From Isurus oxyrinchus (lineage: Eukaryota), in contig JANJGN010000020.1 in the NCBI GenBank assembly GCA_026770705.1, forward strand, positions 77,128,001 to 77,192,000: DNA of 64,000 nucleotides, given 5' to 3'. Shown in pieces: positions 2,690 through 55,980 of this stretch. Below the pieces are notes generated by a model. The model saw only the letters and a list, made by a program, of their open reading frames with translations, was not told where the DNA came from and searched no databases. Within the stretch, counting starts at the first letter, position 1. The number at the start of each line of letters is the position of its first letter. A program made the translations under genes and the position numbers.

Positions 2690-3597
2690 GTCACTGTTTA
2701 TGCCATTTGGCAATAGATTGAAAGAGTATTTAAACGCCCTTTTCTGTTCCGCTTTGTATTTAGTCTGGGTCCCTGCATATATAAGTTTATTGTTACAGGG
2801 TCAAAGGAGTTAAAAAACTATTGCCTTTGCTGCAGAATAAATTTTGTGTCAATGGAAATGGAACTGATAGATCAGCTATTTCCCATACATTGGGTAAACA
2901 GGAAACGTACAATATGCATCAAGGCCAGTAAGAGGAAACTGCCTGAGATGAAGAAGAGTACAACAATAGACTTGCTGTGGCTCTTCATCTCTGAGTCACT
3001 CTGATTCTCTCCATTCCTGTGGGATCAGAGTCTGCAGCAGGATCTACTTGCCAGTAGAATATTTCAGAATGTCTCAATATCGAGCAGCAAAATCAGGAGA
3101 AAGGAGAGACATGGGGTTAGGATACAATCCAGCCAGTCAAACATTCTCCATGGAAATGAAATATAAAATACATCATATATGATAGAGCAGTGAGTTACGT
3201 TGTTAACGATATAAATAAGTTCATATATGAAATAAAAAACGGTGTTTATCAAAGAGAACAGCTTACAGATCATTCCTAAATTTCCAGCTGCTGTTTTCTT
3301 ACTGCAGGTTTTCATTTTCAGCTTCTGGTGACAAATGGCTAGGAAGCAGTAAAAGGTGAATTTGAAGGTTGAGCAGAGAGTACAACATTTGGAACCAAAG
3401 TTTAAAGCATCAAATACGACATAGAGGAATGGTGGACAGAAAACTGACTGGAAAATAAACAGCCAGAAATGGGCTTAATGTCACGGTAATGCTAATGACA
3501 AGGAAATCTGTCAACACCATGGATACCAGATCCTGCGTGATACATCAGGAGAGACCACAAAATCCTCGGAAGAAGATCACAATTATTAGAAAGTTAG
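2690..3597 (-). pseudogene. GPR139/GPR142-like class A GPCR pseudogene, exon 2 (TM1 end to TM7)
   Basis: Acceptor TTACAG then ANFLIIVIFFRGFCGLS*CIT...; FTFYCFLAICHQKLKMKTCSKKTAA (DRF motif mutated); PWRMFDWLDCILTPCLSFLLILLL; NGENQSDSEMKSHSKSIVVLFFISGSF; IYAGTQTKYKAEQK. Contains in-frame stops. Confidence 0.9.
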
Positions 3598-6500
3598 CTG
3601 TAAGAAAGACAGCGAGAGAGAGAAAGAGGAGATAGAGAAGAACAGAATTAGTGCCGAAACCCTCAGCTACCCCTGCAGTTTGGTGGGAGAATGGTATGGA
3701 ATTTGTATCATGAATACTTGATTCAACGCTGGAACTGATTAATTTAGCAATGTAGTGCCTTTTTTTATTAATATTGCCCCAGATACATTGGAAGTTGGAA
3801 CATGAAATAACACAAAACACTTATTTTCTGATTCTTGTAAAGTTTATGCAATCTAGAAGTAGAAGGAATTGAACAAGACTAACGTATTAAATTGACAAAA
3901 GGGCAGCCTGAAAATGGCATAACGTACAGATAATAAATCAATACATTTACTCGTTTAAAAATGCAGCAAATAATAACGTTATGAAATGTTAAACCGCTAT
4001 AATACTTAAAGCAATAGAATGACAGGAAATAAGATATGGGTAATAACTCATACCTAAGAAATAAATGAGGGAACCACGGGACGATGGAAAATAAAGTTGA
4101 GCGAACGCCATTGATTTAATTCGGGTTTAGTTCCTGTGGAAACAGGTCAAAGAGCATCAGCGGTTTTTTTGCAGCTGAATGATTGCTGTATTGGGAGATT
4201 AGGTCTCGAGTTATTAGTGAAGATTTTCAATTGAAGAAGCAGAAAGTCTTCCATTTAGAGTCTCACCAAAAGAGCGACAGAGCAGGTAGTGCTGTCCTTC
4301 CTCAGGAGTATGCAGCTAGATTAGGGACTCGCAATCGGGAGTAGGGCTCAAACCCAGGGCTTGAACACTGATATTTCAAAATTTAGATCCCCGAAAAAAA
4401 GTGGCTGTGAGTATAATAAATACTGGCTCCCATGGGTATCACACAGCCTTGACAACAAAATGCATCTTAGGAGAATTGAATGGAGCAGTGAACAGTAGCA
4501 ACAGAGTTAAAAAAAAAAGTCTTCATAACTGTTGATCGATTGCAACTATTTGATAAATTTACGAATAAACATGTGGAGGGTAAACAAAAATCTGGAAAAA
4601 TACATTTCACAACCATTTATAGTTTCGCGCCCACTAGAAAATATGCTGATCCGTAATGGCTAAGCTCGAAGCGCCACAAAAAAAGCGCCACCCTCCCACA
4701 AATTATATTCCTTCTTCCACAGTTTGCTCATTCAGTTATCGAACATCAACACTTCGCAATGTCCTCTTCTTATGTAAAATATTTACTGTGCCACATGGCT
4801 TATTTTCGGCAGCAATTTGGATACGAAACTTACTATTGCTTCATCTTGAACCTTCTAAATGTGGTGAAAAGCTGAGATCCAAATACAAATCCTGCGAATC
4901 AGCTGTCACCCCCTGTCAATTGAAATGAATTCACATTATCCATCAACAAATTAGATGAGCTTTGTACAAACCACAGCCATCGCGATTTAAATTTACATCG
5001 ATATCACTGTAAATTAACATCTAGGCATGTAAAATAAATGACCTGTTTAACTAAGAATTTCAGGTTTTAATGACATTATTGAAGTAACAGTTAAACAACA
5101 TTGTGCAACTTTTGTATCATTGCCAAAAAGTCCTTGAACACAAGACACAGAAATCGTGGGAACGCATAAAGCAATCTTGATTTTTTTGCTGTTGGTGGAC
5201 AGCCAAACATCCAGAGAAGCTAAACAGTAGACATCTGACCCTCAAGGCTTCACAGTTAAAAGAAAAGATGGAAAAGGCCTAATTCAGGAAAAAAATACGT
5301 TGAGTACAATGAATTCAGATTCAGAATGTTTCCGTTTCGTATTTTGAGTGGTTCAGAAAACTGACTGGAAAATAAACAGCCGTAAACCGGCTTAATACCA
5401 GTGTAATGATAATAACATGGAGATCTGTCACCGCCATGGACACTGCGTATCTAGAAAGACCACAACTTCCTCGGAAACGGATCACGATAGTCAGAAAGTT
5501 AGCTGTAAGCGAGACAGAGAGAGAGAGAGAGGAGGGAGAAGGGAAGAATTAGTGCTGAATCTCCCAGCTACAACATCCGTTTGGCGGGAGAATGGAATGG
5601 CTCATGGACCATCAATATTTCATTCAACGCTCGAACTGATTAATTTATATTGTCCCAGAAGTCGGAATATAAAATGACACAAAACACTTACTTTCCGATT
5701 CCTGTAAATTTTATGTAATCTAGAAGTTGAAGGAATTGATCTTCACTAACGTATTAAATTGACAAAAGGACAACCTGAAAATGGCAAAAGAAATACAGAT
5801 AAAAGCTCATTGCATTTATTCACTTCTAAATAAGTAAATAATAATGTTTTGAAACTTTAAACCGCTATAATAATGAAACCAATCGAATGACAGGAAATAA
5901 GATATGGGTAATAACGAATTCCTAATAAATATCAGAAGGAACCAAGGTACGATGAAAAAGAAAATTTGAGCGAACACCATTGATTCAATTTCGCTTTTGC
6001 CCCTGTGGAAACAAGTCAAAGCACATCAAAGGCTTTTTTACAGTTCAGTGATTGCTGTAGTGGGAGATTAGGTCTCGCAGCAATAGTGAGGATTTTCAAC
6101 TGATAAAGCAGAAAGACCTCGGTTTAGAGCCTCATCAGAAGGAGGACAGAGTAGATAGTGCTGGACTTCCTCAGGGGCATGGAGCTAGGCTACAGACACC
6201 AGATCGGAAGTAGGGAACAAACCCAGGGCTTTCCGAATGAACACTGAGATTTCAAAATTTAGCTCAGCTAAATAAAGTGGCTACGAGTATAATGAATTCC
6301 GGCTCCGAAAGGTATCACACAGCCTTGACAACAAAGCGCACTTCTAAGGAGAATTGAATGCGGCTATTAAAGGAGTTAAAAATGGTGGTCATCACAGTTC
6401 ATCGAATGCAATGATTGATGTTAAATTTACACATTGTTAATCGAACACCAATAAACATGTGGCGGGTAAACAAAAACATGGAAAATACTTACCACTATCA

Positions 6501-7200
6501 TTTATAGTTTCACGCTAATTAGAAAATATGGTGACCTGCAATGGTTAAGCTTAAAGCGCCAGAGAAAAACACCCTTCCACAAATTGTATTCTTTCTCCCA
6601 CAGTTTGCTCATTCAGTTATCCAACAACAACTCTTCGCAATGTCCTGTTCTTCTCTAAACTATTTACTGTACCACATGGCTTATTTTCAGCAGCAATTTG
6701 GATACGAAACTTACTGTTGCTTCATTTTGATCCTTCCAAATGCGGTGAAAAGCTGAGGCCCACATACAAATCCTGCGAATCAGCTGTCACTCCCTGTCAA
6801 TTCAACTGTATTCGCGTGATGCATCAACATATTAGATGAGCTTTGTACACACCGCAACTATTGTGAGTTAAATTTACATCGATATCAATGTAAATTAACA
6901 ACTAAGCATGTGAAATGAATGACTCGTTTAATGAAGAAATTGAGGTGTAAATTACAATTTGCAGTAAAAATTAAACTATATTATGCAGCATTTGTATCAT
7001 TGCCAAAAATACTGTCAACACAAGAAACTGAAAGCACGAGAACACATAAATCAACCTTGAATGTCTTGCCATTGGAGTGCAGACAAAAACCCATAAAAGC
7101 TAAATAGTAAACATCTGACCTTCAAGGATTCACAGTTAAGCAAAGGTTGATAAGAACTAATTCTGGGGAAAAAAATATAGAAAACAATGAATAATGCTAG
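3440..7200. repeat. Diverged tandem duplication, two ~1.9-kb units (about 3440-5320 and 5345-7200)
   Basis: Collinear matches throughout: acceptors at 3598 and 5503, and paralogous ORFs MAKLEAPQKK (4656) and MVKLKAPEKN (6541). Offset about 1885-1905 bp. Confidence 0.9.
5345..5502 (-). pseudogene. Truncated GPR139-like GPCR exon-2 fragment (from the tandem duplication)
   Basis: CTTACAG acceptor then ANFLTIVIRFRGSCGLSRYAVSMAVTDLHVIIITLVLSRFTAVYFPVSFL. Ends at the duplication junction. Confidence 0.85.
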
Positions 7201-7779
7201 ACAGTACAGTATGCTACAGAGACAAGACGCATGCCCTTGCAAAAGCCATTACCCAGACACAAAACTACAGAGACATAGCTCAGCCATCTTTAGGATAAAA
7301 AGTATTGAGTTATGAGAGAATTGCATTCAAAAGTAAAGAGAAATGTACACTATACAATGAAAATATTATACTAGATTTTAAGAATAACTTCTTCAAATCG
7401 GTATTTGTTCGGATATCCAGATTGTTCAATAAAGTGAATTGAAAATCTTATGCTTTCTCACATAGGATTGCTATGTTATATTCGGTGATATAGTATTGAT
7501 ATGCATATGAGTTGTAGCCTCATACTGAAATCCTCACGAACCCACATATAAGTAACAATATTGTAGAAATCGTAAGTTTGCTTTCTAAGTGCGGATATTG
7601 GTAAACTTTTAAAGAGTTTTTTCATTCTGTAATATACCTGCAGTAATATTCTACCCTGGCATAATTTTGCTGGTTCGTCAACTCCGAGGAGCTGTCTGAG
7701 TTGTTTTGAATTCGTACAGAGCAGTTGTTCGAGGCAGGGAGTGGCGGTGGGGGAGTAATGCAGTCAGATCAATGTTACA

Positions 7780-8350
7780 TTTCGAAAAGGCCATTGGGAG
7801 TAATAATTGATTAGGATCGATATATGGCTATAATAAGAGAGCAGGGTCATTGGAATATTTCTGAATGAATACTGTGCTGCAATGCGAATGACAGGCAGTG
7901 CCAATTATCTTGGCTTGATACTAGCCTATAGTGAGAAGAAAGAAAATTGTGAATTATTTTGGATTGGTACAAGCTTATTGTGAGAAGAAAACACCAGTGT
8001 GAAATATCTCGGATTGCCAGAGGCTCACACTTAGAAAAAAGGGCAGAGTGAATTGTTCCAGGTTCGTACCAGGTTGAAGCGAATTGCTAGGCAATGTGAA
8101 ATGTTTTGAACTGAGACAGGCATATAATGAGAGAGCCTAGCAGTATGAATGCCCCTTGGATTGATACAGGGCTGGAGTGAAAAGGCAGCAATGTGTGAAT
8201 TTCAAGAATTATTTTACTAAAGGGACATGGACGAAACAGTGAACGATTTTTGATGCATTCTGGCCTGTAGTGAGAGGGCAGGGCCGACAAAATTGTTTTG
8301 GGATGATACAGGGCCACGATGATAGAGTAAGGCACTGTGAACAATTTGGC
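7780..8350 (+). repeat. Degenerate ~49-bp tandem repeat
   Basis: (G/A)TGAA anchors at 7949, 7999, 8048, 8096, 8145 and 8195. Unit is roughly GTGAATTGTTTTGGATTGATACAGGCCTATAGTGAGAGGGCAGGGCAGT. Confidence 0.7.
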
Positions 8351-8389
8351 TTTCTGCATTCATCTGTTCACATTGGGAGATCCTCATAT

Positions 8390-9250
8390 CATAAAGTTAC
8401 CAGGACATTTAGAGACAGAAGGAATTCATTGAGTCCTTTGCAAACATTTAGGATCTCTGAAGCACAATTCAGTCAGTCTCCTCCTCCCCATTGTATCTCA
8501 GCCGCCCTTCACGTTTATTTCCATTAAGTAGCTATCACATTACCATTTGAAATCATGAGTCATCTCCGTTTCCACCACAATTGTAGGCAGCACCTTGAGG
8601 TCATGACCACTCGCTACATAAACACCTTTCTTCATCACGTGCTGCCAGCACGTTTCACGCGTTCCTCAAAACGTTGCACCCAAGCAACTTTACGATCGGT
8701 AACTGGGAACAAATTTTCTGCTGTCTACCTTATATCAATCCGTTTAATCTGGGAAGTTTCTACCAAATATCTCATCAATTCCCTTTCCTCCGATGAGAAC
8801 AACCCAAGCTCCACTCACCGAATATTGCTGCCAAGGTGCCGCATCCCTCTTAACATTCCAGTAAATCTCCTCTACACTGCATAAAGTACACACACATTTT
8901 ATCTGGTGCATGGTGACCAGAAAAGGACACAGCGATTTAATTCTGATCTAACCAGAGTGTAAATTGTTTCAGCACAGCTTCCTCGTATTTATGCTCAATT
9001 TCTCGATTTATGAACTCGAAAATTCCGAAGCGTGTTGTAACGATACTTTCAACATCTTATGGCACCTTCGAATATCAATTCACATGGACCCTCAGGTCCC
9101 TCTGTCCTTGCGCACTGTTTAGAACATTAACATTAAATGGATATTGTTCCTCACTGGCCATTTTACTAAATCTAGCATTTCCTGGGTAAGTCCCATCTGC
9201 CACTTTGATTCAGATGCTGTAGACTTTTGAAATCAGAAGTCCTCTTCCTA
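8390..9250 (-). mobile_element. CR1-type LINE 3' fragment, old
   Basis: Reverse-complement similarity to the CR1 RT C-terminus and 3' UTR seen elsewhere in the window. Confidence 0.6.
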
Positions 9251-10229
9251 ACTCTTTCCAACATTCTGGTATGTCAGGGTCCTCGTAGTATTGCCTATGA
9301 AATAAGTTAAATGTTGCGTTTCTAGTTTGGTCTAAAACTAGCATTGCCTTCTTCATCTTGTTTCTCGCTTTTATTTCAGTGATTGGGCAAGCACAGGCTT
9401 GGCCAATTTAGTTTAAATTATTCGCAACTACACTAGCTGTGCAACATTACTGGTTGCAGCTCTGTTGTTTTGTACACCGTCCCTAATGAACAAATGCCTC
9501 CAGGTTATTCCCCCCCACCCCACATGACCACCCGCTCCCCTTCCCATACTTCCCTGAAGAATCAGTGCTGCTCCATGTTGAATGTCACTTGCAAGAAAGA
9601 CTAAGAGTTGCAAGGTCGCAGAATGAACTCAGGAGGCTTCAGTGTCCATCACCAAGTGTGTCTCCGAAGCAGCGATAAATATTGACCTGGCTGCATGCCC
9701 AAGGAAACACCTACCAGATTTTGCCTGTGGTAGGTGGTGAGGAAGCCAAAAAACAGGGAAAACACACGTTATCTGATCATAAGTAAACTACCTGTAGCAG
9801 ATAAACCTGTCCACCATAGTATTGGGAGAAGCCTCCAGTACACATTCTGTGTAAACATGAAAACCGTCACACTGTCATGCTGTGTGGCGCTACCATTGTG
9901 CTAAATCAAAGCAAGAAAATCAAAGCCGGATTTCCATTAGGCGTAGTGAGCCATCAGCAGTTGTAGCATTATATCAAATCTTAGTTTGTAAACTCATGGC
10001 CCGTTATACCCCTCACTTTGACATCATGAAAAGATGAAGGGATCAATCCTGATAAAGTGAAGGGTGTAGGACAGCATGCCAGAGCCCCAAAGGATATAAA
10101 AAGGAGGTTTCGACCTGGCGAAGTGAAAAAAACAGAAACCTGTGCATGCCAAGCAGCTGAAAAATGATGTGATTGACAGCTCTAAGATATCCCACAAACA
10201 ATTGGTCAAACCAAAGATCATCAATCCTT

Positions 10230-10730
10230 TCACATCCAATCATGAATGGCAGTGGGCAATAGAAGAATAAAGACAAAGAGGGTATTCCACAAATATCCTT
10301 AACCCTAAAGATGGGGGAGTCCAGCATATCAGGGCAAAAAGAGATGGCTGAAGGATTTTAATCCACTTTCAGCCAGAACTCCCGAGTGGAAGATCCATCT
10401 CAGACTCCTCCTGAGGTCTCCATCGTCCCAGGGTTCTGTCCTCACCCAATTCGATTGATTCCGTTTAATATAAAGACAATTGAGTACAACAAATGCCACA
10501 AAGTCATGGGCCCGAAAAAAGACCCGGCTGTAGAATTGAAGATTAGTGCCTCAGAACGAGTCGACTCCATTTGCGACTTCAGTACATCTTAGAAAGCTGG
10601 CTATGACTCAAACACTTGGACGCTGCCCAAATATGACCTGTCCAGAAAAGGAAGGAAAAATCCATTCCGGTCAACTATCGCCACATTAGTCTACCTTGCA
10701 TTACAAGCAAAGCGATGGAAAGTCTCGCCA
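10230..10730 (+). mobile_element. Internal fragment of a second CR1/L2-clade LINE family (family B)
   Basis: Reads 'KSIPVNYRHISL..ITSKAME', typical of the pre-RT region (NYRPISLLSIISKVME). Confidence 0.65.
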
Positions 10731-11494
10731 TTTTTGTTAATGGTTGGTGGAAAGTCACTCATGTGAATGGCGCTGTGCTTCAAGAAGCGCTTCGTCGTAT
10801 CTTTGTAACGTTTTCCCTGTCCTTCCCTGAAACGTTGGCCAATTAAGTGATGGAAAATTTAGAGCACGTGGCGTGTGGTCAATTTCCTCGGGGCATGAGC
10901 ATAAATTTGAAATGAATAATAGTTCATTGCAGTATTAATGGAGAGATGCGCTGATTGAAGTTCGGACAGTCGGGTGGCATCTAAAACTTAAGCCATTTTC
11001 ATGATCCCAGGTGGATGCAAGAAACATCATGTTGGGCAATTTGGCTTGGTGGGGCTTTATCTAAATTAAAGTTATCCTATTTTTGACCATAGCCTCGGTC
11101 GCATTGAGCAAAACCGTGTTGTCGTGGACTGTGCTTTGACCAAGTAATCTATTAATATTGAAACATACACAAAAGTATCAGAGTGCATGTGCGTAAAAGT
11201 ACAAAGATTAGTCAGAGGGGAATATGATATTCTAACGATAATAGATATCTTCCACAATATCTGTGGTGATTGCAAGTCTCATATTCCTATTTGCAATGCA
11301 TTTTGAATCATTCTTTTTAACTCTTTGCAAAGTAAACTTCTCCCGCCTTCACACTGTTCTGCGACTGATGGAACATCCCAGGTAGTGTGGCAGCTCAAGT
11401 GCAATTTATCAGCTCCCAGCAGTTGGATTATGTGTTTGATATGACGAGGAAATTCTAATAGGCCTGCAATATTGTTTCCACTCAATACTTATAC

Positions 11495-12125
11495 CACCTT
11501 TTTTATTTATTCCTGCGATATGGCCCTGGGTAGCAAGGTCAATCTTTATTGCGAATTGCTCATTTTGTTTAGAATTTCGTGGTGAACTGCCTTTTTGAGC
11601 CCCTTCAGTCCATATGCACTATCTTCATCCATAATGCTGGAAGGCAGGAAGTTTCACAGTTTGACCAAGTGATGAAACTTATTTTCAAATTTCGAGCGTG
11701 AGTGAGATGCAGCTGCTGGTATTTCCACGTGCCTATTACCTTTGTTTCAGTAAAACCCGAAGTTTGGAAGGTGCAGTTACAGAATACCTGGTAACTTGAT
11801 TATTTTTTTCATGGGATGTGGGCAGCGCACAGAAGGCCACATTTGTTGTCAATTTGTGCGCACTTAAGAGGCAGCCATATTGCTGTGGGTCTGCAGCCAC
11901 ATACAGGCCAGATCGGGTAACGACGGCACATTGTCTTCCCTAAAGGACATTAGTGAAGCTGATAGGTGTTTGCAACAATCGATGACCTTTTTCATGGGCA
12001 CAGTTACCGAGATGAGCTTGATACTCCAGTCGCATTAAATGAATTAGCTGCTATGTTATGATTTAAAACAATGTCACAAAGGTATGTGCCTCGGCCTCAG
12101 AATCACCCAATCACGCTACCCCGAA
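11495..12125 (-). mobile_element. Family-B LINE 3' end followed by a SINE sharing the same 3' tail
   Basis: Tail motif TTCATGGGATGTGGGC...GGCCA..ATTT.TTGCC at about 11510 and 11810. SINE body (GGGTCTG.AGTCACAT..AGGCCAGA...GGACATTAGTGAA) matches 22430-22790. Confidence 0.65.
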
Positions 12126-12299
12126 TGTTGATGTAGGACGTTCGACTATCGCAATTACGTTAAATTTCAAGGGGAAGTTGTTTGATGTCCTCATCCTGGA
12201 ATTGGTAACATTTTGCTGTATCCTTCCTGAATACATTCTGCACACCTGGATCTCTTGATAATGGTTGGAATCACAAAATACTGTTCATTGTCGATATAA

Positions 12300-12625
12300 A
12301 CATATAATACTGCTGAAAAAGACCAGTCCAGAATAGTAGATATTGCTCATAACTGGACCTGCACACACTGAATGTAACCGTACTGAAGTAGCAATGTGCA
12401 GACTAAACCTAACTACAAGGATTTTAAGGAGGTCTCATTGCTTGCAATACTGATGAATTGGGATTGTTAACATTGAATCTAATGAGGTTGAACTGGAGCA
12501 GCCCACGCCAGAAGTAACAGTGTATTACTGAACCAGTCCTCTTTGAACACTGGTGTCGAGAAATTACATGTGCACATTGAGAATTACTGTGCAGACCTGA
12601 GTCTTTTCACACTCATTATAGACCA
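12300..12625 (-). repeat. 35-bp satellite (reverse orientation), left part, split by the CR1 at 12660
   Basis: AACTGGACCTGCACACACTGAATGTAACCGTACTGAA is the reverse complement of the unit at 1375-2330 and 59030-60140. Confidence 0.7.
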
Positions 12626-12659
12626 ACAGGCCCCATCTCTGTGGAAAACTATCATATAT

Positions 12660-15225
12660 AAATTGAGCATTTCGCCCTTGAAGGAAACCATGTCGATGAA
12701 ATCAGTGCGAGAGTGAGACAGGGATATTGGCTCAGAAAATCTAGATGTAGATGCAATCTGGGTGGAGATAAGAAGCAACAATGAGTGGAAAAGATCACTT
12801 ATCTTTAGACATCCAGACAGCAGTGTTGACATAGGGGACGGCATAAAACAGGAACTTCGAGCTGCATGTAACAAGGGTGCTACAGAAATCATGGGTGACT
12901 TTTAACTACATATAGAGTTTGTAAACCAAATTAGCAATAATAAAATGGCGAATGGATTCCCGTAGTGTGTACGAAATTTTTTTTTCAGAGTCGTATGTCG
13001 AGGAACGGACTGGGGATCAGGCTATCCTAGATTTGGTATAGTGAAATGAGAAGCACTTAATTAATAATCTTGTTGCGTGGGGTCCTTTGGGGAACAGTGA
13101 CCATAACATGATAGAATTCTTCATTGGAATGGAAAGTGAAGTAGTCTGATCTGAAACGAGGGTGCTAAATCTTACAAAGGAATCGACAAAGGTAGCAGAT
13201 TTGAGTTGGCTAAGATCGATTGTAGTACTTCATCAAAAGGAATGATGGCGTGTAGACAATGTCCAATGATTAAGGAACGAGTGCATACCTTTCAAAAATC
13301 ATACTTTCTTTTCTGGCCCAAAAAAACAAGACAGGAAAAGCGGCCCAATCATGGGTAACAAAATAAATTAAGGATAGCTTTAGATCCAAAGAGGAGTCAT
13401 ATGAAGTTGCTAGAAAAATTAGCAAGCCTAAGGATTGGGAACAATTTAGAACTCAGCAAAGGACGACCAAGACGTCGAATAGGGGGGACAATATTGGACG
13501 AGGGTAAACTTGCAAGTAACATAAAAGCGGTCATTAAAAGCATCTATAAATATTTTTTAAAAACCTTACAGTCTGAAACGGGAGATCTTATAACAGAACA
13601 ATTACTTTAGCTCTGTCTTCACGTAGGGAGACATAAATAACTTCACAGAAATACGAAGGAACCTCGGGTCTATTGAGAATAAATAATTCAACGAAATTAA
13701 TGTTACTAACACAATTGTGCTAGAGAAATTAATCGGACTGAAAGCCAATCAATCCCCAAGTCCTGATAATATACATCTTGGGGTACTAAAGGAGGTGGCC
13801 ATGTAAATAGTGAGTGTAGTGGTTGTCATCTTCCAAGATTATGTAGGTTCTGCAACAGTCCCGGCAGATTGCAGGGTGTTAAATATAACCCCGCTACTTT
13901 GAAAATGAGTGATGAAGAAAACAGCGAATTACAGACCTGTTAGCCGAACCTCAATAGTAGGGGAAATGCTATAGTCTGTTGTAGAGTATGTGATAACAGG
14001 ACACTTTAAAAATATCAATGGGATGAGACAAATTCAACATGTATCTATCAAAGGAAATCATGTTTAACAAACCTACTGAAATTTTTAAGGCTGCAATTTG
14101 CAAAAAAGATAAGGGAGAACCAGTGGCTGTGATGAATTTGGATAATCAGAAAGCCTGGGAAAAAGACGCAAATAAGGAGTTAGCGTGTAAAATTAAAGAC
14201 AGGAAAGAGAGCAGCAATAAGTAGGTCTTCTTTGCAGTGTCAGGCGGTGACGAGTGGATTAACAGGGATCATTGCTTGGGCTCGAGCTATTTATATATAT
14301 ATATATATATCAATGATTTGCAAGACGCAACAAAAGGCAATATTTCCAATTTGCTGATGACACGAAACTTGGTGAGGATGTGAGTGAAGAGGCGAGTGTT
14401 CTGAGGCTACAAGGCGAGTTAAACAGGTTAGTGAGTGGGAGAATAAGTATGATGTTATCCGCTATGGCAGGAAAAGCAGATTGGCAGAATATTATTTAAT
14501 GGTGATAAATTGGGAAATGTTGATGTGCAAAGGGACCTGGATGCCCTTGTGCAGCAATCACTGAAGGCAAGCATGCAGGTGCAGCAAGCAGTTAAGGACG
14601 TAAATGGCACGTTGACCTTTATTGCGAGGGAATTTGAGTGCAGGAGCAACGATGTCTTACTGCAACTGTGCATGGTCATTGTGAGATCACACCTGGAGTA
14701 GCGTGTGCAGTTCTGGTCTCCTTACCTAAGAAAGGATATACCTGCTGGAGAGGGAGTTCAGCAAAGGTTCGCCAGGCTGTTTTCTGGGCTGGCAGAATTC
14801 TCGTATGGCTAGGCCATTATTCATTGGAGCTCAGAAGAATGAGAGGCGTTCGCATTGAAACATATGAAACTCTGACAGGAATGTACAGACTGGATGCAGG
14901 GATGATAACTCCTCTGGCTCGGGCGTCTAGAACAAGGGGTCACAGACTCAGGATACGGGATAGACCATTTAGGACTGAGATGTGGAGAAACGTCTTCAAT
15001 CAGCAAGTAGCGAACATGTGGAATTCTCTAGCACAGAAGGCTGTGGAGGTCAAGTCACTAGATGTATTTAAGAAGTAAATAAATAAACTTCTAGCCTTCA
15101 AATGCATCAAGGGGTGTGGGGAGAGAGCCGGTCTAAGGCGTTGAGATAGAGGATCAGCCATCATCAAACTGAATGGTGGAGCAAGCTCGAAGGGTTCGAA
15201 GGAGTAATCCTACTCCTATTTTCAA
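12660..15225 (+). mobile_element. 5'-truncated CR1 LINE (endonuclease end, RT and 3' UTR), decayed
   Basis: GPLGNSDHNMIEF, NYRPVS.TS.VG.ML, ADDTKLG and RSHLE.RVQFWSPYL motifs, followed by a CR1 3' UTR. Many frameshifts. Confidence 0.9.
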
Positions 15226-15269
15226 TATTTCGGTGGACAATATTTTCCGGACACTGAAAGTAAGCATGA

Positions 15270-15745
15270 GGAATTAACTATCTGCACAAGATTTATAACA
15301 CTGCTTCACATGTGCACATTGAAGATAGCAGTTAATATCGGGCCTGTCCATATTCATTGCAACATGACTGAAATGGGCCTTTGCAGACTTAGTGCTGCCG
15401 TGCATAATCTCGCCTGGTTCCACGGAAAGCGATTTACGGGAAAAGGACGTGCACACTTACCCTTACTTATCCGTCATGAATGAAAGTAACGTGGCAGAAA
15501 TGGAGCCTCGACACATCACATAACCATACCGAACTGGAACGGTCCACATTAACTAGAATCGTGCTCAACTGGACCTCCGTTTACGGAATTGAAGCGTACT
15601 CTCTATAATTATGCATAATTAACGCATAAGCGCTTGATTATATCTGACCAAGTAAAACGTAGCCGTTCACAGCTACACAACTGTGCACAATCACTACAGC
15701 AGGATTTGACATGTCTGCAATGAATTTAACTGAAGTGGAATAATC
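15270..15745 (-). repeat. 35-bp satellite (reverse orientation), right part, upstream of the + strand GPCR
   Basis: Repeated GAACTGGAC / GTGCACA / AACCG motifs. Confidence 0.6.
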
Positions 15746-16159
15746 CACACTGCAAGAAGCCGTACAGAAGATTTGAGTACTTTAAAGCTAAAGGTGATGA
15801 GTTGAACATTTCCATACCAAATACAAACAAGCTTATGTGAAGAGACAGAAAATGCTGGAAATACGCAATAGACCGTTGACCATTTGTGGACAGAAAACGG
15901 TAATAGGTTCAGATCCATGACTTTACATCGAAGTTGGGGAACAGGTAGCAATGGAAGAGTTTTTGTTTTCACTATAGCGGCTGGAAACTGTTGTGGTAAA
16001 GAGCAGATGACAAAGAAACACCAATGTATGTTTGTGTTAATGTGGAAGACAGAAGGCCACTTTGTGAGCATGTTCCTTCAGAACAATGTCAGTGACCTTG
16101 AAGAGCTTTCTACTCCGTCAAAATAAAAACAATTTCCTGACAGCGGCAGCACGAGCATC

Positions 16160-16245
16160 TTTGTTTCAATTAGCGTAATTATTGCAAAAGATCAAAGCGT
16201 CCAATTGTCTCCCTGGAGGCAGGTCTGAGATATATATGTGACTGT
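16160..16245 (+). promoter_or_regulatory. Conserved proximal promoter of the GPCR family (TAATT boxes, O/E-like site, TATA-like box)
   Basis: Aligns with the reverse complement of 55981-56063 at a similar distance from the ATG: TTTGTTTCA.TTAG.GT.ATTA.TG.AAAAGAT.AAA...C.AATTGT.TCC.TGGA...GATA.ATGTGAC. Confidence 0.6.
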
Positions 16246-16287
16246 CTTTAGTTGTGGTGCAGAACACACTCGCAACTGGTGACAGAA

Positions 16288-17960
16288 ATGCACGGATTGC
16301 CAAAAGAATTGATTTTCATCATATGCTATCCCGTCCTTGCAGCGATCGGGATTCCAGGTTAAGTATTTTGATTTGCTATGTTATTGACATTTTTGTTTAA
16401 TTACTTCTCTTTAGTTTGCTTTCATTTTAGTGAATCATTGTTCGTATTTAGGAGCTTTGCTTCTGCATGACACGATATTCTTTCTCCCATTAAACAGAAC
16501 AATCTATCAACATTACGGCGACATCTTCCACTTTATCACGTTCGACACTGTCCCTTTTTTCCACTTCAAGGGAAATGTTTAATTTAATTCTCCATTTTAG
16601 CAACACAATTGCTTTCATTTACTGACATGATTAGTCGTCATCAAAATGTCGAGTCACTCAAGTTTGCTTGTGCCTTTTCTTCCCTTGGACATAGTTTCTC
16701 CCCAATGCCAGGATAATAGTTCAGCAGTCACAATGCACTATCTTTCCTGAGCTAGTAACATTTAGTCAGTTTAATTGGACACTTTCATCTGTTTATCGCC
16801 ACCGTTCGAGGTTTCAGATGTTATTTTATTTTATTCTTGGTATTTTTTAAAAGGGTGACGTATAACGCTGTTACCACTGAGGAAATGTTTTTCTGTTGTG
16901 TCAGTGGCATTGTCACCTTGTGTGAATTATTACACAGGAACTGTATCTAAATTATGCATTATCTCATTCCTTTCCCTTTAAGTTTCGCTGGAATATGAAC
17001 AGTATTTATCTGATAAATCTGTGCAGAATATTAAATGACTGGCCCAGGGTTTCTTGCCTTAGCAGAAACCTGGCACCCTGGGCGGCGAAGAATTCTCAGG
17101 GAGCTGAAGTTGGGCTTGAATTAGGACATTTTGACTCTAAAGCTAAACGTCTTTCAACTTAACAGCAACTGAACATTTAACTGTGTGTGGATTTCCTACC
17201 TGCTGTGAAGGACAGTTGTATTCGCTGCAAGTCGTCATAACTCGGGAGTTCTAGTTACCCTTTATTTCCTTCCAAATGAGCTTTTTTTCTAATTTAGCTG
17301 TTCTCATTTGCTGGTTTATGCCCACAGGAGCAACACTTTGTATTTAATTCCATTCAACGCCATCTACTGAGTTTCTGTAAAATTCTTAGGTCGATTTAAC
17401 ATTGTGTACCTTCTTTTTTTCCAATGTTCTAGCCTGTTCTTCTCTAAACAGCAAGCAAGAGGATACTTGATCGTTTTTCATTTAACTGAGTATCAATGCA
17501 GCAATTTGAATATTCACTATAGGGCCGAGCCCGCATTCTTCTTGTAAATCAGCAGCACAGTATTGACAATTTGCTGCATTTTGGAATGAGTCTTTTTTTC
17601 TCCACTGGAGCATATAAGTCGTGGGACTGAAATGGGAACATTGCTCTCCTTTCATGACCGATGCTGAATTTGTGAGTTTCTCAATATTTTCTGCTCTATA
17701 TTCATTTGTCCTCACCTCAAACTTACTGGTTATATTCCTCTGCCACAACTAATTTGGCAGTAATTGTGATCCTGTCTCGAGGAAAATGCGGTCTCACTGG
17801 ATGTATCACATACTACCTGATGTCCATGGCCGTTGCGGATCTCCTGATCATGATCCTTGCTGTGATGTTAAACCGGATTGTAGGTACATATTTCCCATTC
17901 AGTTTCCTTTCCATCACTCTGGCCTTTGCTCTCAGTCTTTTGTTCATATATGGCGTATAT
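16288..17960 (+). pseudogene. GPR139-like GPCR pseudogene: exon 1 at 16288-16357, truncated exon 2 from 17749
   Basis: Exon 1 MHGLPKELIFIICYPVLAAIGIP with a phase-1 GT donor. Exon 2 ANLAVIVILSRGKCGLTGCITYYLMSMAVADLLIMILAVMLNRIVGTYFPFSFLSIT. The acceptor reads CACAA instead of CACAG, and homology is lost before the DRF motif. Confidence 0.85.
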
Positions 17961-18509
17961 GGGTCCGCTTCACACTTGAACTCGTTTTCCCATAAACATA
18001 GCAACAGGGAACTGGAGTATTACAGACACAGAAAAAGTAAACAGTTTGTTCGCTTCTTCCATTTGGCAATGGAGGCGAAATCCGCAGGGTCATCGTACAG
18101 TACAAGTCACATGGGCAACAATGCCCCCTTTTAAATGATTACAAATCGCAACTGAGCAGAACAAAAAAAAATACCAAATTTAATGGGAACATTATCTTCA
18201 CCATCAATAATGCATTATAAGAGTTAATTGCCATCCTGATACAGAAACAGTAATTAGAATGAAATTGTGGGTTACACTTCGCAATGACCCCCTATCCCAA
18301 TCGTGGGTAAATACTACATACTTGCTCTTATTTGGAATTTCCCATGTTCTAACTTACAACCGCAATGAAAGTCTCAAGACTCAGCATTGCTCTCAGCAGA
18401 AAATCCAATCCAAGGCTCTGTACATATCACTCGTTATGTCTTCCAATGTTAGTTGAAACAGACAGATTGCCCTACACTTTATAAGAGCTTTGTCTAAGGA
18501 ATTAAGTAG

Positions 18510-18890
18510 CCGGAAAATGCACATGTTGTAGAAGCTTATGGTCTTGCACTCATCAGGACAATTTGCAAGAGTTGCGCCAATTTCAACTGAACAAAAGACG
18601 GGAGAGCCAGTCTCTGGCTCATGCCCTCGTGAAATGTCTTGCCAATCAGAATCAATATACTTGATTTGAATGTAAATAATGGTTGACAGTTAACTTCCAT
18701 TCATCAGGTCACTATCGCATTCTCTATTGCAACGCCACGAGTGATCTGTTTGCACTCGCCCATCAATCATCATTCTCTTCTCATGACGTTTAAAGTGTTG
18801 TTCCATTTGATTCTTTAGTTACTCTTGCGAATTGTCCTGATGAGTCCAAGGTGAAAACCTTCGAAAGCATGTGTCTTTGATCAGCACTCT
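18510..18890. mobile_element. Penelope-type hairpin element with ~58-bp inverted arms and a hammerhead-like core
   Basis: 18516-18572 (CACATGTTGTAGAAGCTT...GCACTCATCAGGACAATTTGCAAGAG) is the inverse of 18822-18880 (CTCTTGCGAATTGTCCTGATGAGTCCAAGGTGAAAACCTTCGAAAGCATGTG). Confidence 0.7.
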
Positions 18891-18914
18891 CACGGTCTGT
18901 TCTACCAAAAACGA

Positions 18915-20310: not shown

Positions 20311-20389
20311 TATTAAACTCTCCATGAAGTGATTGTCATGAGTCTAAACAGCAGAATCAAGTCTCTAAATTCGCTGACCTATCAAAAAT

Positions 20390-20960: not shown

Positions 20961-21194
20961 AGCCTTTGAGTTCCTCTCCTGAAGATGTTGACTCAGAGGA
21001 AAAGCAGGATACATACAGCTGCTCGAATATTTCCTATAATTCACTTAGTTCATGGGTATTCTAAATATAACTTGCATCTACCCACCTTAGTTTTATTCTC
21101 TTCCAATGGTTTTCCTGAAAGTAGTCAATTTATCTCATTTTTGCATATTCGATTGACTCCGATTCTCTTTGAAGCTTTAGGAGAAAATGGTCAA

Positions 21195-24075: not shown

Positions 24076-24079
24076 AGCT

Positions 24080-33950: not shown

Positions 33951-33967
33951 ATATTTCACTCTATACT

Positions 33968-37035: not shown

Positions 37036-37089
37036 TACTCGAATACAGGGAACACTGCCATTTATTATCCTATTCATTTACTATATTGC

Positions 37090-38320: not shown

Positions 38321-41300
38321 ATAAAACATATTGCATGTTCGCTTTCTCTAGTCTGTGTACCCGAGCACCCAAACTGAAAATTTACAATGTTTACTAGTTT
38401 CTTCCCTGTTGAAATGCTGGATGAGGGTAGAAGGAAACTCGTCTTTGTTATTATCTCAGGGAATCTGAAGGTTCTCGTGCAATATTAAGACAGGGCAGTG
38501 ATGCGTGTGTAAATTAATACATGAGATAATTCATAAAATTAATGGTCCTGGCCTCCCATTTGGTGGTGATAATGGGTTGATCAGCTCTGATTGTAAATAT
38601 AATTAAAGCCCTATCTTTTTCCACCCTTGCAGCTTGTTTTTCTTCCCTATGTAGTGGGGTGGGGGAGATGAGGTGTGTATGAGGTGCATAGATACCGGGG
38701 TGGTTAGTAATTGGGTTGGGGATGGGTGAGTAGTTAACGTGCTTTGCAGTCGGTTGGGTGTTGAATGGACGGGCGATGGCGAGTGAGAGCTGTGCAAGTG
38801 GATCGAGGGGAAGGCAATCGAGTCAGATTAGCTATTCTGGGGTCAGTAGTTGGGGGTGCTGTGCGTTGTTGTATGTGTGCGCTAAATGTGGGAGATCTGT
38901 ATGGGTAGGGGTTGGCCGTGCATGGGCTGAGCTCGACAGTTACTTGCTGACACATGCTAGAAATTAACAGCGGGAAATTACTAGGGCAAGCATCTGGGTA
39001 AGTATCATACAACATGCACAAGGGTCCATAACTGAAGTCAGTGTCGGAGTCATTGTTAGAGGGTCCTGGGAAGTACAAATCTGTCAATCAGAAGTTTAAA
39101 TTTCGCGATTAATTACCGTGCATGCTCCTGGATCAGCATTTTGGATGGCTCCAGATGTTTAGAGCGGTGGACATTTCAATATTCATTACTGTTGGCAAAG
39201 GGAGCTCTGGTTAATAGTGCAGTCAGTATCAAATTCACAGCAACGGACTCCAGACACCAGCTTCAGATAAAGGGAAATTGCACAAGAGGGAAATGCAGAT
39301 CAGGTCAAAAAAGGCAGGTTTAAGGGGAATAACAAAAAAACATTTTAAGAATTAACTTAAAGGATGATAAGTTTGTAGCGAGGACAACAGATTTTGGAGG
39401 AGATTCAGAACATGAAAGCCTTAATTTTTCACTGTGGTCTCCCATGCCAAAGGCTGCAGACATGCCCAGAAAAGGAAGGAGAGGCAGCTTAACATCAGCA
39501 GAGTCACATAAGATATCATTTGTGCCTTTGCTAAGGACGGTGTAAGAGTTTTAATAAGGGAGAAAAATGGTTAGAAAGATTTAAGCATGGAGTCCCTTGG
39601 AAGTGGGGCAGAAACGTGGGGGGTAGCAGCTGGTGCAAGGAATTTGTAGAGGAAAGAGAGGTTAGAGATAGCATGTTTGCTTACAAGGACTGAGGCATCA
39701 TGGGTTGTTTATTTACAAGGGCACGGGTGGAACTATTAACTATATCAGCAAATGCGGAAGATGGTGAGGAAGTTCGGTGTTCAGTAGTATGGTGGGAGTA
39801 TGATGGAATCGCCACCAGCAGCCCCCCCGCACACCCGCCTCCCCCACCCACCGCCCACACGCCCTTCCCTCCCAGCCTCCACTTTGCAGTGCATTTCTCT
39901 GCAGTGGGCCCGCGAGCCATTGAAATCTACATTCACATCGGAGGGACCCGGAAATCCTGCTGGAGCGAGGGATTGGAAAATTGCGGCCTAATTGCGACTT
40001 ACTGGACTGAGCAGAGCCTGAGGTGATGGCTGCATCAGGGAGAATGCTAAGGGTGAGAAAGGAACGTAATGTAAAGGATATCAAAGATGGAGATAAAGAA
40101 ATGAGTTAGCAGATTGGAGCCTGTAGAAATGCCTCAGTGAGGGGGAGGGTTAACATCCAAACCGCTTGTAATTTGGAACTGGGAGCAGCTGCTCCCACTG
40201 CTCCCTAGTTACCCTGATGGTGACACAGACAATCTTCCAGACAGGGAACACGGTTACCTCAACTTATTCTATCAACTGGCAAAACCCAACAAGCTATCAG
40301 TAAATTGATTGAGGAGCTTTAGGTAGTGCCATAAATATTATCTATTCGCCAATATCCTGATCACCAATACTCCGTTTGCGCTATACCTGAAACATCCCGA
40401 TGGAAAAACACATCATTGTCCAGATGCAGACACAATTTCATTGGGAGCTACCAGAAATTCAAAGCCTGATTCCCACCAAACCAATCAAAACCTGGAAATC
40501 TCGCACCTGAAATATGATGAAACTCTCACTATTCATCAGGATGGTAAAGGAAGCAACACACAATAAGCACAAGCATCCTCCAGATTGGAATATATGCTCC
40601 ATCAGTGATCGTCCATCATTAAACTCGATATTTCACCGACTCCTCCTCTGTGGATGCAGGAAGAATGTCGATAGAATCAACTGCAAAAAACACCGAGGCT
40701 CCTTCGACAGCATGCTCTGGCACAGCAACATGCAGAAGGGGTGCAATGCTGCGAGGTTCACCAGCACTAACGCACCACCCTGACTTGATCTAATTTTCTG
40801 TGAGATCTAATGATTGCTGTTTATGCTGGGGACCACTATACTCTGTCAAACACTGATATACACAGTGAAAACATTGCCGAGATATAGGCAGAGGAGATTC
40901 TCCGGTGATTTGACTAAACAATACACTGACTGACATTAATTACAGTCTCTTAACAAACAAGATGCTTTAACCCTTCCATTCCATCAGATTGTGTGGAAAG
41001 AATACAATAAAAACAACGTGGCATGCCGGTCAAGATAATTCATTCAAAACAAACACTTTACGTCAACCACTGTTGTGAAAAACAGATTATGGAATCCTGC
41101 AGGCTTGCAGCACAGATGAAAAATAAATAGGTTCAGATCCAGAGTTCTGCATATTTCGTAGATAAACTCCTGCCCAACAATTTCACGTTTTCAATTCATT
41201 TCTCAGAGAATGAACTTAACACAAGTCCCAGGGAATGGTCAGAAGCAGTAACAGTCCAAAAGGATTTATGGTTGATGATCATCTAGTGATCAGAACGAAA

Positions 41301-41639
41301 AATAATGGGCTAATAATTTGAAACTTATGTCTGGTCTAGCAGTAAACGTTTGACAGTTGCCACGGAGTGACAATTACAATGGGAATTATAACAGAGTTCA
41401 ACTTTAAAACTGTCTTTGTAAATGATACCCCGGTGCAACAAAAACCCAGTAGTTGAAATCCTTGGAATATTAGTGTCCATGTAAAAGATATACAATCTAA
41501 AATGACATGGTATCTGACACCACGGACTTACAGTGACCACGTAACTTATACCTGGTCACACAGTGCTCGTTTAAATGATACAAATGTTCAGCAGTGGGCG
41601 TTCCACAGATAGTGTCGTCAAACGGTTACCTTGGGATTG

Positions 41640-41904
41640 AAACCTTATGCTCCACTGGTCTTGTATCGGACACTCCGCTCTAACTGTTACCTTGCAAATA
41701 ATGTCTCAATCCACAATTGGCACAGCAGTCCTTCCTAACAGTCACCTTGTAACTGATAATCCAGTCTAACAGTGACTTTGTACTGGATCTCACAATTTAA
41801 CAATAATCTTGTACTTGAGACCCGGGTCTAACAGTGACCTTGTAACTGATATGCTACTTTAGTAGTGATTTTGTAGCCGATACTATGGTCTACAATAGAC
41901 CTTT
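41640..41904 (+). repeat. 31-bp minisatellite, monomeric left segment
   Basis: Repeated TAACAGTGACCTTGTAACTGATA.TCCAGTC units. Confidence 0.8.
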
Positions 41905-51840: not shown

Positions 51841-54749
51841 TCCTTTCCACAAAAAGTAGGAAAAACCCAGTCCGCCCATCAGTTTACTCTGGATCATCGG
51901 CTAAGTGTTGGAAAGTTTTGTCGGCAGTATTATCAGGCAGTAATTCCATAGCAATAACCTGCAGCCTAATCTCATCCTGTGTTCCGCCAGGGTCACTAAC
52001 GTGATTAACAGAAGAAGCAACAGCGACATGATAAAACGAAACTTAATTTTAAATGAAGAGATTAGTTAGGACCTGCCTATGGTGAGAGGCGGCAGGAATT
52101 ATCCAATTATGTGAAGAGAAAAGAAAGAGAACAGAGTTATCGAGAAAAGGTTGTGCAGTGGGATGCGATGTTCTGTCCTTTCAGTGGCCAGCACGGACAT
52201 ATCATACCGAATGGCCTCATTCAATGATGTAGCCATGGTATGAGCTGCTGATTCTCCGATTTAGATGAATAATGTCGTCAGGTTATGTCGCTTGTAACCG
52301 AGCTGGAGAGATGATACAATGGGTTAGAAACCCTTTCGGGTCCCGAAATTCGGACCGCGCTCTTCATCATTCCCGAATTGCACCGGGTGTCAGCACGATT
52401 CATTATCGGTCCGATGGAATAAAAACATCCCAAACGCTCCTTCACGTTCTCATTTCCATTTATCTAAAAGCAATTTGAGATCGGAAATGTAACAGGAATG
52501 AACCAAGTTGGCGACATCCGAACTTACTGGGTTTGCATATATCGTTCTCCCTCTGTCACTGTCCAGTTATATGTCTGGGTGTGTCAATGTGTTTCAATTC
52601 CCCAGTAGGTGGGTACATTTTACCATCGTGAACGTTATTCACATCAGTTGTGTAGATGTTTATTAAAATGTGACAGGTAAAAATAAAAAGCATTATACAC
52701 GCCAGGGATGATTGTATATTTGATTTAAGTTGAGACAGTTTAGCCACTAGACCCTTTAGCCGAGGATGATTGGACTTTTCACTGAGTAATGGAACACAGA
52801 AACCACGTAGTTGCAAACAGGTGATTAAAGCAATGGACACATCTAGAGAATGAATTTGTTTATGCAAATAGACCAGAGTGAAATCTCTCTGAGACCTGTT
52901 GACAGGTCTCACAATGAACAGGAAAACCAAGGTCCACTCACACCTATATCAGGAACGGGCAGGTTAACATCACCAGGAGACCCCGAACAGCTGGTGTTCT
53001 AGACAAGAGAAGACTGGGAGTTGCACTGAAAAAATGGAATGCTTTATTTGAGTTTAGTCAGGGATTTGAGGCGAAATTCATTCACTCAGCTTCAGGATTG
53101 TATCCACTATATCTGTATGAACCAAACATTGAGCCGTTTATGGATGTAGCAAGAAATGCCTCAAGTTGAGAACTAATTCAAAAGATCGCATTTTTTTACC
53201 GTGTGAATCAGCATCTTTGTCGAACTACCGTGAAGATACTGCAGTGACTGCACTTCGAAATAATTTCTGTCGCTTTAAATCTCCTTGTGATGTCCTGATT
53301 GCGGGAAAGACAACATCTAAAAATAGCAATCTTTCTTACTCTTATTTTTTTTCAGTGTGTAAGGTTGAAAATAGCAATTGCTCTGGCAATAAGTTTGAAA
53401 TATTCTTCGTCTACACAACGGTTGCCAGAGGACTGAAGGTTCTAAATGTGGCACGGCTGTTCAAAACGTGGAAGAAGTACAAACAGGCAAAGCCGCATTT
53501 ATTTTAGTTTCAGAGCACATTATAGCCTTAAATGCCAAATAATAACCAAGGGGAATATTAACATTCCTCCAGTAAACAGTGAATCCCATAATAGTTCAGA
53601 GATCAGAATCTCTGTCTCCAAATGAATGTAAGGAAACCCTGGGGCTCGTGGGGCTGGCTGGAATGTATCTGACTCGAGTCAGCTCGGGAAATGGATTGGG
53701 AACTATCTGATAACGGTGCAAACAACTGAACTGTGCAGCATTCCTTATATAATCTTAAATTCACATTGCGCCAAAGTATCTGAAAGCGAGTGATTATGGA
53801 TCTGGGAAGGCACGCTGTGCGTGGCATGGTTAAAGAGAACAATAGGATGATTATAAAATATGATTCATGTTGGATTGGAAACAATTTGCCAACTCGTGTC
53901 AGGGGACGGGTCCCAGCATAAATAAACGGATTGATGCAGGAACTCAAAAGCTGGAGCATTGTTCCACTTTCATCGAGAATAAAAGTCAAGTTGCTGAAAC
54001 CAGAACCTGAGGGATAGGTAACCTTTGCAATTTGGACATAGAAAGTGTTTACAAAGGATAACAAATATAACAGGATGAAACTGCCGGGGATGACGAAGAG
54101 TAAAACAATGGACTTCCTCCACTTCTCCATCTCTGGGTCACTGTGATTCTCTCCATTGCTCTGGGTCCAGAGTCTCATGCATGTTCTATTGGGCACTAGA
54201 ATGTGTCTGACAGTCAGCGCATTGTGCAGCAAAATCAGATTGAATGGGACTCACGGGGTTAAAATGATACGAATCCAGTCATATGTGGTCCATATAGTGA
54301 AGTATAGCATATTGATTTTCCACTGCAAAACCAAGGTATATCTTTAATGTAAAAGGAAGGTTCATATGTAAAGTACCAGTGTATATTTACAACACAGCTC
54401 AGAACGCAGACAGTTCCTATCACCTCCACTGTCGTTATCTCTGTGCAGTATTTATTTTCTGCTTCTGGAAACAAATGGGCACAAACCTATCAAAGGTGAA
54501 AGTGACCATTACCCAGACAGGACAACCTCTGACTCCCTAAATCAGAACAATGTTGAGACGACAGACAGGAGTGATGGAGGTGAAGCTGAAGGGGAAATAA
54601 AGACGGGCAATCTGCTTTAATATCACAGCTGTGATAATGACCAGGAGGTCCGTCATCGCCATGGATATCAAGTATTACGTGATACATCTGGAGTGGCCAC
54701 ATCTTCCTCGAGCCAGGATCATAATCACTGCCAAATTTGCTGTGTTGTA

Positions 54750-55060: not shown

Positions 55061-55087
55061 TGGTGAGTAAAGTAACTCAAACACGCA

Positions 55088-55240
55088 ATGGTTAAGCCCT
55101 GATTCAGTTGGTAGAACTCGCACTTCTGAGTCAGACGGCTGTGGGTTCAGTCTCTATTCAAGGGCGTGAGCAGCATTGGAGTGTTGCAGTGCCTTGTGTG
55201 TCAACTGCCGGCTAAGCAAATAAACTAAGGCCCCCTCTAA
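55088..55240 (+). mobile_element. tRNA-derived SINE (SacSINE1/DeuSINE-like head)
   Basis: TGATTCAGTTGGTAGAACTCGCACTTCTGAGTCAGACGGCTGTGGGTTCAGTC carries A-box and B-box-like motifs. Confidence 0.6.
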
Positions 55241-55980
55241 GTAAAATGCTAAAACAAGCTCAACACCAATTTAAGAGAGGGCCATTGTTTGTATTACAGT
55301 AAAAGAAACAACATGCACAGCAGGTTAAAAGTGTGAAAATGCAGTAAATGCAGTAATCTTAACATCACAACAGAGTTACATTTACAGTGTAATAGTGGCA
55401 AAGCACAGTACTAATACATTTACACAGTGACATTCCTGTGATATCACAGCCACCGTGACCGCATCAGCAGCACAAAAATTACATTTATCCCATGAGTTGG
55501 TTGCAGTAAATAGGTAAAGTCATAAACTTAAAGGGATGAAATGGTAATTGGTCAAGTGAATGTAACATACGGAATGCCCTTAAAGGGGAGAAATGGCACC
55601 GTTAAAGTAAAAATTTGTGCCTGTAACGAAGAGTAATTATGCCAGTGAAAATGAAAAAAAATATGATGCAGTAAAAATTCTGAGTTAGTACCACCAACGT
55701 TGAAAATAGTACTGAAAAATTGGAGAAATGGAACTAGTGAAATGGAATGAATTGTTGGCCTAAAGGTGACAAAGGATATGGATACGATGGAGAAGTATTA
55801 TTTGTAAACGAGAACAGTGACAGAGCTAAACAATGATTACCATAACTAATAACTAACCAGAATCCTTTAACAGGAACTCCGATAGCTGCAAGGATGGGAT
55901 AGTAAATGGCAAACAGCCATTGGTGATGAGTGCATTTCTATCAGAAACTCCGGTTGCGTTCATCACTGCTCTCACAGATT

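Follow-up and report, generated by a model that had tools for sequence, protein, structure and literature searches.

A 64,000-nucleotide stretch of the 4.98-Gb assembly of the shark Isurus oxyrinchus (G000:C20:77128001-77192000; hereafter the window) contains several broken genes for G protein-coupled receptors (GPCRs). This raises the question to which family they belong, how large that family is and what its working members might do. Our analysis identified the window as a decayed corner of a two-exon class A GPCR family whose copies in this genome number more than 2,000. The family grew from one ancestral orphan of the wider GPR139/142 clade through tandem and segmental duplication. Stops, frameshifts, loss of splice sites and deletions disabled individual copies, and dead copies were duplicated in turn. 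The family is a very large elasmobranch GPCR repertoire of separate ancestry that has apparently not been described so far. We assign a probability of about 0.5 to the reading that it is a shark-and-ray chemosensory receptor repertoire.

Size and ancestry of the family

Copies were counted by running exact degenerate codon patterns over the genome, with reversed patterns as controls. A pattern at transmembrane helix 3 (TM3) gave 2,126 matches and one at TM7 gave 1,888 (reversed controls: 0), while a third gave 1,514 (control: 1). Sampled matches were family members in 30/30 cases for the TM7 pattern and in 29/30 and 10/10 for the other two; a first exact TM3 pattern had yielded no genome match. 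For comparison, the class C NCD3G exon matched 37 times in the whole genome. The birth-and-death expansion proposed in a preliminary description of the locus is thus borne out on a far larger scale than implied, and copies are many genome-wide. In the range listed by both larger searches, 100 and 92 matches had 49 in common, which extrapolates to about 3,900 family copies if the patterns are independent and the range is typical. A search with Pfam PF10324 missed the family at large: it recovered GPR142, a single family copy and, at four loci, three galanin-receptor-like genes.

In intact relatives, exon 1 is short and ends in phase 1 within TM1, and exon 2 spans about 300 codons. Seventy loci were picked by position, on the larger scaffolds and with exon 1 unchecked for most. 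The TM3 pattern was present at 59, of which 28 (47%, interval 35-60%) had an acceptor followed by an open exon 2; among the 11 loci lacking the pattern, four were open as well. Many members are therefore intact, and extrapolation gives about 1,000 open exon 2s genome-wide (750-1,280). Twenty random 10-kb stretches of cluster scaffolds contained just a single full copy, which does not suffice for a ratio. For one subfamily (L159-L165, L167), a search of the upstream 8.9 kb found no exon 1, and for two of its members the same was true of about 29 kb. An intact gene with a pair of exon-1-like segments (L115:3667 and 4615), both ending in phase-1 donors and lying ahead of a single exon 2, has the promoter module only at the farther one.

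These numbers could in part reflect a mostly passive amplification, in which duplication-prone regions of a large genome multiply a functional set of modest size, and copy numbers result from genome mechanics and assembly redundancy. In fact, of the 1,114 matches assigned to the largest branch (the main clade, which includes window copy D), 1,014 lie from C39 on, where scaffold length does not exceed about 11 Mb, and the openness sample came from larger ones. Some small scaffolds repeat loci exactly (L044/L045, 100%). A galanin-receptor-like exon on C22 (L031) and its counterpart on the small scaffold C577 (L032) encode identical proteins, which indicates some assembly redundancy. Recent bursts of copies, however, are 96-99.9% alike, and such graded identity in at least five copies exceeds what two haplotypes can explain. 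Furthermore, 75 intact exon 2s, a score-biased sample, comprised 59 distinct sequences at 99% identity, 40 at 90% (differing by more than 10%) and 14 at 60% (differing by more than 40%). Subfamilies common to sharks and rays likewise speak against mere passive copying, which we regard as improbable.

Sequence features place the family among the class A (rhodopsin-like) GPCRs. PF00001 (7tm_1) was found on all 120 homologues listed, and N1.50 (55/55), D2.50 (55/55), D3.49 (55/55) and R3.50 (54/55) are retained, with DRF replacing DRY. A structure model of a horn-shark member showed seven TM helices and helix 8 (pLDDT 68). Foldseek matches of this model were class A receptors, with GPR139 only at rank 36.

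A genome search with the shark gene on C22, which we take to be GPR142-type, returned a presumably GPR139-type gene (C15, 55%) and next the family at about 30%, before other class A receptors; both are named after their likeness to human GPR139. A phase-1 acceptor before N1.50 is common to GPR139, GPR142, a single gene on C6 and the family. The donor was seen for GPR142, and exon 1 of GPR139 was not located within 50 kb. The C6 gene (L157, G000:C6:157.84 Mb) is a single intact relative that groups with anchovy and caecilian orphans. The shared intron and the reciprocal relationship argue that the family belongs to the wider GPR139/142/SPR-related clade. By Atlas features its nearest further relatives are FMRFamide-receptor-like clusters, in line with a described kinship of the wider clade to MIP/sex-peptide and FMRFamide receptors (PMC12208981).

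A tree of 38 sequences (19 family members chosen for spread; LG+C20; rooted on protostome-type receptors) placed all family members in a single clade (91/85), whose sister is an amphibian/sturgeon gene (100/99). Going outward, the next branches were two orphan clades conserved among vertebrates, both of which include a separate shark gene, then amphioxus genes and finally GPR139/142. The sister gene, an orphan named 'probable GPR139' (XP_069092602.1 group), has the DPEM-RRRS motif of intracellular loop 3 (ICL3) in common with the family. It differs in having one 90% cluster per species listed, being apparently single-copy, and is 24-34% identical. The two intermediate clades, unlike the family, were not expanded in our searches. 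Orphans called GPR210A/B, to which these clades may correspond, have been placed near GPR139/142 in a paper that leaves sharks unmentioned (Rinne 2019, PMC6504862). Named family members come from several shark orders and from rays (Hypanus, Leucoraja, Narcine), so the expansion first described as one of sharks extends to rays; among the names listed there was none from a chimaera.

GPR139 and GPR142 are class A orphans activated by L-Trp and L-Phe (PDB 7VUG; PMC8807744). A family of multiplied GPR139 orthologues sensing Trp or Phe would fit the database names, the common intron and the best sequence match in the PDB (GPR139, 34.4 bits). CCK1R, however, is close at 32.9 bits, this genome has GPR139 and GPR142 as genes of their own, identity to either is 18-28%, and a clade of the family with GPR139 was rejected in an approximately unbiased (AU) test (p 1.4e-34). 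Orthology, including a 1:1 relationship to GPR139, is refuted by these results and by loss of the pocket described below, and the chance that this explanation is right is close to nil.

Binding pocket, selection and promoter

The agonist pocket of human GPR139 comprises E3.32, F3.33, H5.43, R6.51 and N7.38 (PMC8807744). All five residues are kept in shark GPR139 and GPR142. In contrast, E3.32, R6.51 and N7.38 occurred in 0/27 main-clade genes; among genes of other subfamilies N7.38 was found in 9/28, while E and R were outside the six commonest residues at their positions. The family shares W6.48, F6.44 and D3.49-R3.50 with GPR139/142, and differs from these single genes in having cysteines at 3.25 and in extracellular loop 2 (ECL2), which both of them lack, and a longer ICL3. 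The label 'GPR139/142-like' hence holds only for the wider clade with its common intron: this is a separate lineage with a rebuilt pocket, and an amino-acid ligand therefore cannot be carried over from GPR139/142.

The deep pocket of the main clade is nearly fixed (D2.57 27/27, Y3.33 27/27, H5.43 25/27, W6.48 27/27), and its residues differ in other subfamilies. The signalling face is constant in intact members (D2.50, DR[FY], F6.44). Selection was analyzed with codon models in our own code (GY94, F3x4, IQ-TREE branch lengths multiplied by one scale, naive empirical Bayes) on 23 of 27 main-clade representatives, leaving out three near-duplicates and one truncated gene. Transmembrane columns were under purifying selection, with a ratio of nonsynonymous to synonymous rates (dN/dS, omega) of 0.3. 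At 7% of sites omega was 4.5, and twice the log-likelihood difference (2dlnL) was 218.5 for M1a/M2a and 196.5 for M8a/M8. The extracellular loops, singled out for dN/dS in the preliminary description, are where this signal lies: 15/16 selected sites were extracellular against 65/293 columns (p 5e-10), with loop limits drawn from the alignment and the structure model after a first run had revealed the sites. The selected rim consists of ECL1-3 and the tops of TM6 and TM7. Each third of the gene was significant on its own tree (52.7, 79.6, 60.7), which lessens the worry of gene conversion and does not remove it. Nine further main-clade genes gave 2dlnL 54.9, with 9/9 selected sites among the same 16, and 14 very young copies showed omega of about 10 at 3% of sites. 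Purifying and positive selection together argue against purely passive copying. In part of the main clade (exon 1 of L120, L125 and L166) the N-terminus is built of tandem 14-residue repeats in varying number, most of which carry an N-glycosylation site.

Positive selection of this kind would also be expected of an immune or barrier repertoire, in which leukocytes or mucosal sentinels detect microbial or parasite peptides, or in which pathogens bind the loops and drive escape. Its repeated action on identical exposed positions (omega about 4, and higher in the youngest copies), the constant deep pocket with a variable rim, the variable glycosylated repeats and the recent copy bursts all fit such a role, which we nevertheless consider rather unlikely. 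Fast extracellular evolution is also typical of reproductive proteins. Seminal or mate peptides might be read by receptors located on sperm, in the oviducal gland or on neurons of the reproductive system, comparable to the insect sex-peptide receptor, to which the wider clade is related as mentioned above. A thousand receptors would be far beyond known systems of such kind, however, and we judge this explanation very improbable.

Alignment of 27 upstream regions revealed a module of TGTTTGT, about 10 bp, TAA[TC]TAA, about 20 bp, TAATTG with a TC.CTGGAG site, about 12 bp, TATAAA and the ATG. These elements, which we take to be homeodomain, O/E-like and TATA-type sites, form blocks that align across deep subfamilies. 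In leave-one-out scoring, 15/20 promoters exceeded the background maximum (21.7 over 180 kb). Homeodomain sites numbered 75 against a shuffle mean of 32 and maximum of 50, and a homeodomain site adjoined the O/E-like site in 10/21 promoters against 20/1000 genomic tiles. This conservation suggests one shared cell programme and does not indicate which one. Homeodomain and O/E-like sites count against an immune role, a point softened by the activity of EBF in B cells as well. A comparison with the GPR142 promoter was void, because an acceptor precedes that exon, which is hence not the first. Mouse olfactory receptor (OR) promoters contain homeodomain and O/E sites (PMC5318403, PMC5608512). The likeness of the family module to them is partial.

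Copies in the window and their history

Four class A GPCR genes (A, B, D and E) and two fragments, all disabled, lie in the window, B on the plus strand and the others on the minus strand. They were mapped by translation, tblastn with the 120 homologues, frameshift-aware alignment and DNA profiles; tblastn E-values down to 1e-102 rule out chance. Of two nucleotide profiles, one built from intact exon 2s found exactly six pieces and one for promoter and exon 1 found three modules. None of the copies is able to make a receptor. These results agree with the preliminary description, which listed at least five copies or fragments in both orientations from at least two subfamilies, all disabled and with a phase-1 intron in TM1. 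Its shared motifs, GENxSDPEMExRRKSI in ICL3 and ICxQKLKxKYCT in ICL2, are found, partly degenerate, in A, D and E only, as B and the fragments stop short of them or miss them. The copies probably span three subfamilies, and at least two: D falls into one clade (support 99) and B and E into another (100), while A joins neither of them, its branch being long and weakly placed.

Copy A consists of exon 2 from the end of TM1 to the C-tail (2690..3597) with an intact acceptor, six stops and two frameshifts; no exon 1 was found for it. Nearby lie a 73-bp internal exon-2 fragment covering TM4-ECL2 (2353..2425; tblastn E 3e-5, nhmmer E 9e-6) and fragment A' with the acceptor and start of exon 2 (5350..5502). 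The latter lies within a tandem duplicate of A's intron end (5658-7192 matches 3791-5314 at 80%). Copy B retains a promoter module with TTTGT box, TAAT homeodomain sites, O/E-like site and TATA-like box (16143..16287, score 47) and an intact exon 1 of 23 codons plus 1 nt with a phase-1 GT donor (16288..16357). Only the 5' part of its exon 2 is left (17749..17957). The acceptor is changed from AG to AA at 17747-48, and the exon ends at about 17957 through a deletion of about 1.1 kb relative to B's duplicate. Exon 2 of copy D (34903..35800) carries two stops and four frameshifts and is 83% identical to intact L253; this copy belongs to the positively selected main clade. Its promoter remnant (40792..40967, score 30) lacks the coding end of exon 1. 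In copy E, exon 2 (53903..54739) has three stops, two frameshifts and a replaced helix 8, exon 1 (55871..55935) is frameshifted with a GT to TT donor, and the promoter module (55936..56069) scores 40. An exon-1-like open reading frame at 22420-22512 was dropped, as it was unmatched by the promoter/exon-1 profile.

Copies A, B and D lie in one arm of an inverted segmental duplication (3..41642, about 80-92% identity), whose other arm is situated about 19-62 kb beyond the window end. Copy A and its inverted duplicate at G000:C20:77250421 have four stops and one frameshift in common; A therefore died before the inversion. B's duplicate has a full exon 2 with a stop of its own. Lesions differ between D and two paralogues, which therefore died separately. 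All three stops and one frameshift of E recur in 3/3 tested copies of five on C38/C42 that are about 94% identical to it, demonstrating that E was dead before it split from them. Both gene birth-and-death and copying of dead genes thus occur, and some of the copies arose passively, when genes that were already dead were duplicated.

The 264 kb centred on the window contain 12 full-length exon 2s and five fragments, and one of the 12 is intact (L095, with exon 1). The 11/12 broken copies and the early deaths of A and E fit the passive explanation introduced above. The heavy pseudogenisation noted at first sight is real here; with 28/59 intact elsewhere, the window overstates decay. A head-to-tail main-clade array at G000:C34:1.27-2.31 Mb has a step of about 18.7 kb, and 1/4 sampled copies were intact. 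Fragments of long interspersed elements (LINEs) occur at 19271-19771 (RVT_1 match at 19271, E 8.5e-8), 54772-55095 and other positions of the window, and a repeat-like stretch, presumably LINE-like, adjoins the acceptor of copy E. Related tandem repeats (62 bp and 31 bp), a long CA tract and poly-G/poly-C runs lie at 43079-43775, 41735-41851, 58453-58884, 30661-30720 and 33972-34026.

A possible chemosensory repertoire

Genetically, the family appears to resemble chemoreceptor families. OR, TAAR, V1R/ORA, V2R and rodent vomeronasal FPR repertoires likewise form clusters, undergo birth and death, contain about half pseudogenes, are selected on the ligand face and have a compact shared promoter. 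In contrast to them, the family has a different ancestry, an intron in TM1 and a promoter unlike that of the local V2Rs.

Several observations weigh against a chemosensory function. Extracellular positive selection fits a host-pathogen conflict equally well, and 17 genes from the branches holding A, B and E showed no positive selection (likelihood ratio test 0; omega about 0.3 in all regions). Homeodomain sites were nearly as frequent in intron controls (63 versus 75), the exact O/E palindrome occurred in just 1/27 promoters, and the composite homeodomain-O/E motif is a post hoc definition. The TATA box of the family promoters is usually missing from OR promoters (PMC5318403). Moreover, the module was absent from 200 kb of a V2R cluster (best score 18) and from 4/4 located V2R promoters, and V2Rs are the olfactory family demonstrated in sharks (PMC10116579). 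A catshark 'brain and olfactory epithelium' library lists no GPCR among its top 50 genes (PMC11979771), a weak point for sparsely expressed genes. In the four V2R promoters (cluster L263-L282, G000:C2:230.79-230.99 Mb), a TATA box precedes the ATG by about 50 bp, and a TTCTTT(T)GGG element is common to three of them.

A run search with an intact exon 2 returned 14 possible RNA runs with 6-14% of its words, five at 0.00, and no tissue labels. Four runs compared with an intact two-exon gene gave paralogous contigs covering parts of exon 2, mostly less than 90% alike, with no splice joint seen and one run probably of DNA, from which neither expression nor absence follows. No GPR139-type label was found in supplements of PMC11372145 (4 files), PMC8455134 (12/24), PMC13188829 (8), PMC10529500 (1) and PMC5568229 (10/20). 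Two of these papers describe shark immune single-cell data, which speaks against an immune role unless their gene naming hides the family. The literature search returned no papers on GPR139 together with elasmobranchs and, in the open literature, none on the expansion; the tandem-cluster figure and supplements of bioRxiv 2025.06.08.657570 and the supplement of PMC11979771 could list its genes.

In a chemosensory repertoire, the promoter common to the genes would direct their expression to a single type of sensory cell, with few expressed per cell. The ligands would most likely be waterborne peptides: the fixed deep pocket might grip a chemical group common to them, the variable rim would recognize the remainder of the larger molecule, and the receptors would signal via G protein.

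The window itself holds only pseudogenes and a record of family turnover; its copies do nothing. The family at large, machine-labelled 'GPR139' and with more than 2,000 copies, would rank among the largest vertebrate receptor repertoires and was missed by surveys looking for the four known chemoreceptor families. Sharks have been described as having about 50-65 chemoreceptor genes (PMC6368271; PMC10116579), and 65 are known in catshark (PMC6368271). More tentatively, the family may be a fifth olfactory receptor family of sharks and rays with about 1,000 working genes, derived from an orphan peptide-receptor lineage that is apparently single-copy in amphibians. If this is true, the repertoire would be as large as that of mouse ORs and would overturn the view of sharks smelling with a few dozen V2Rs.

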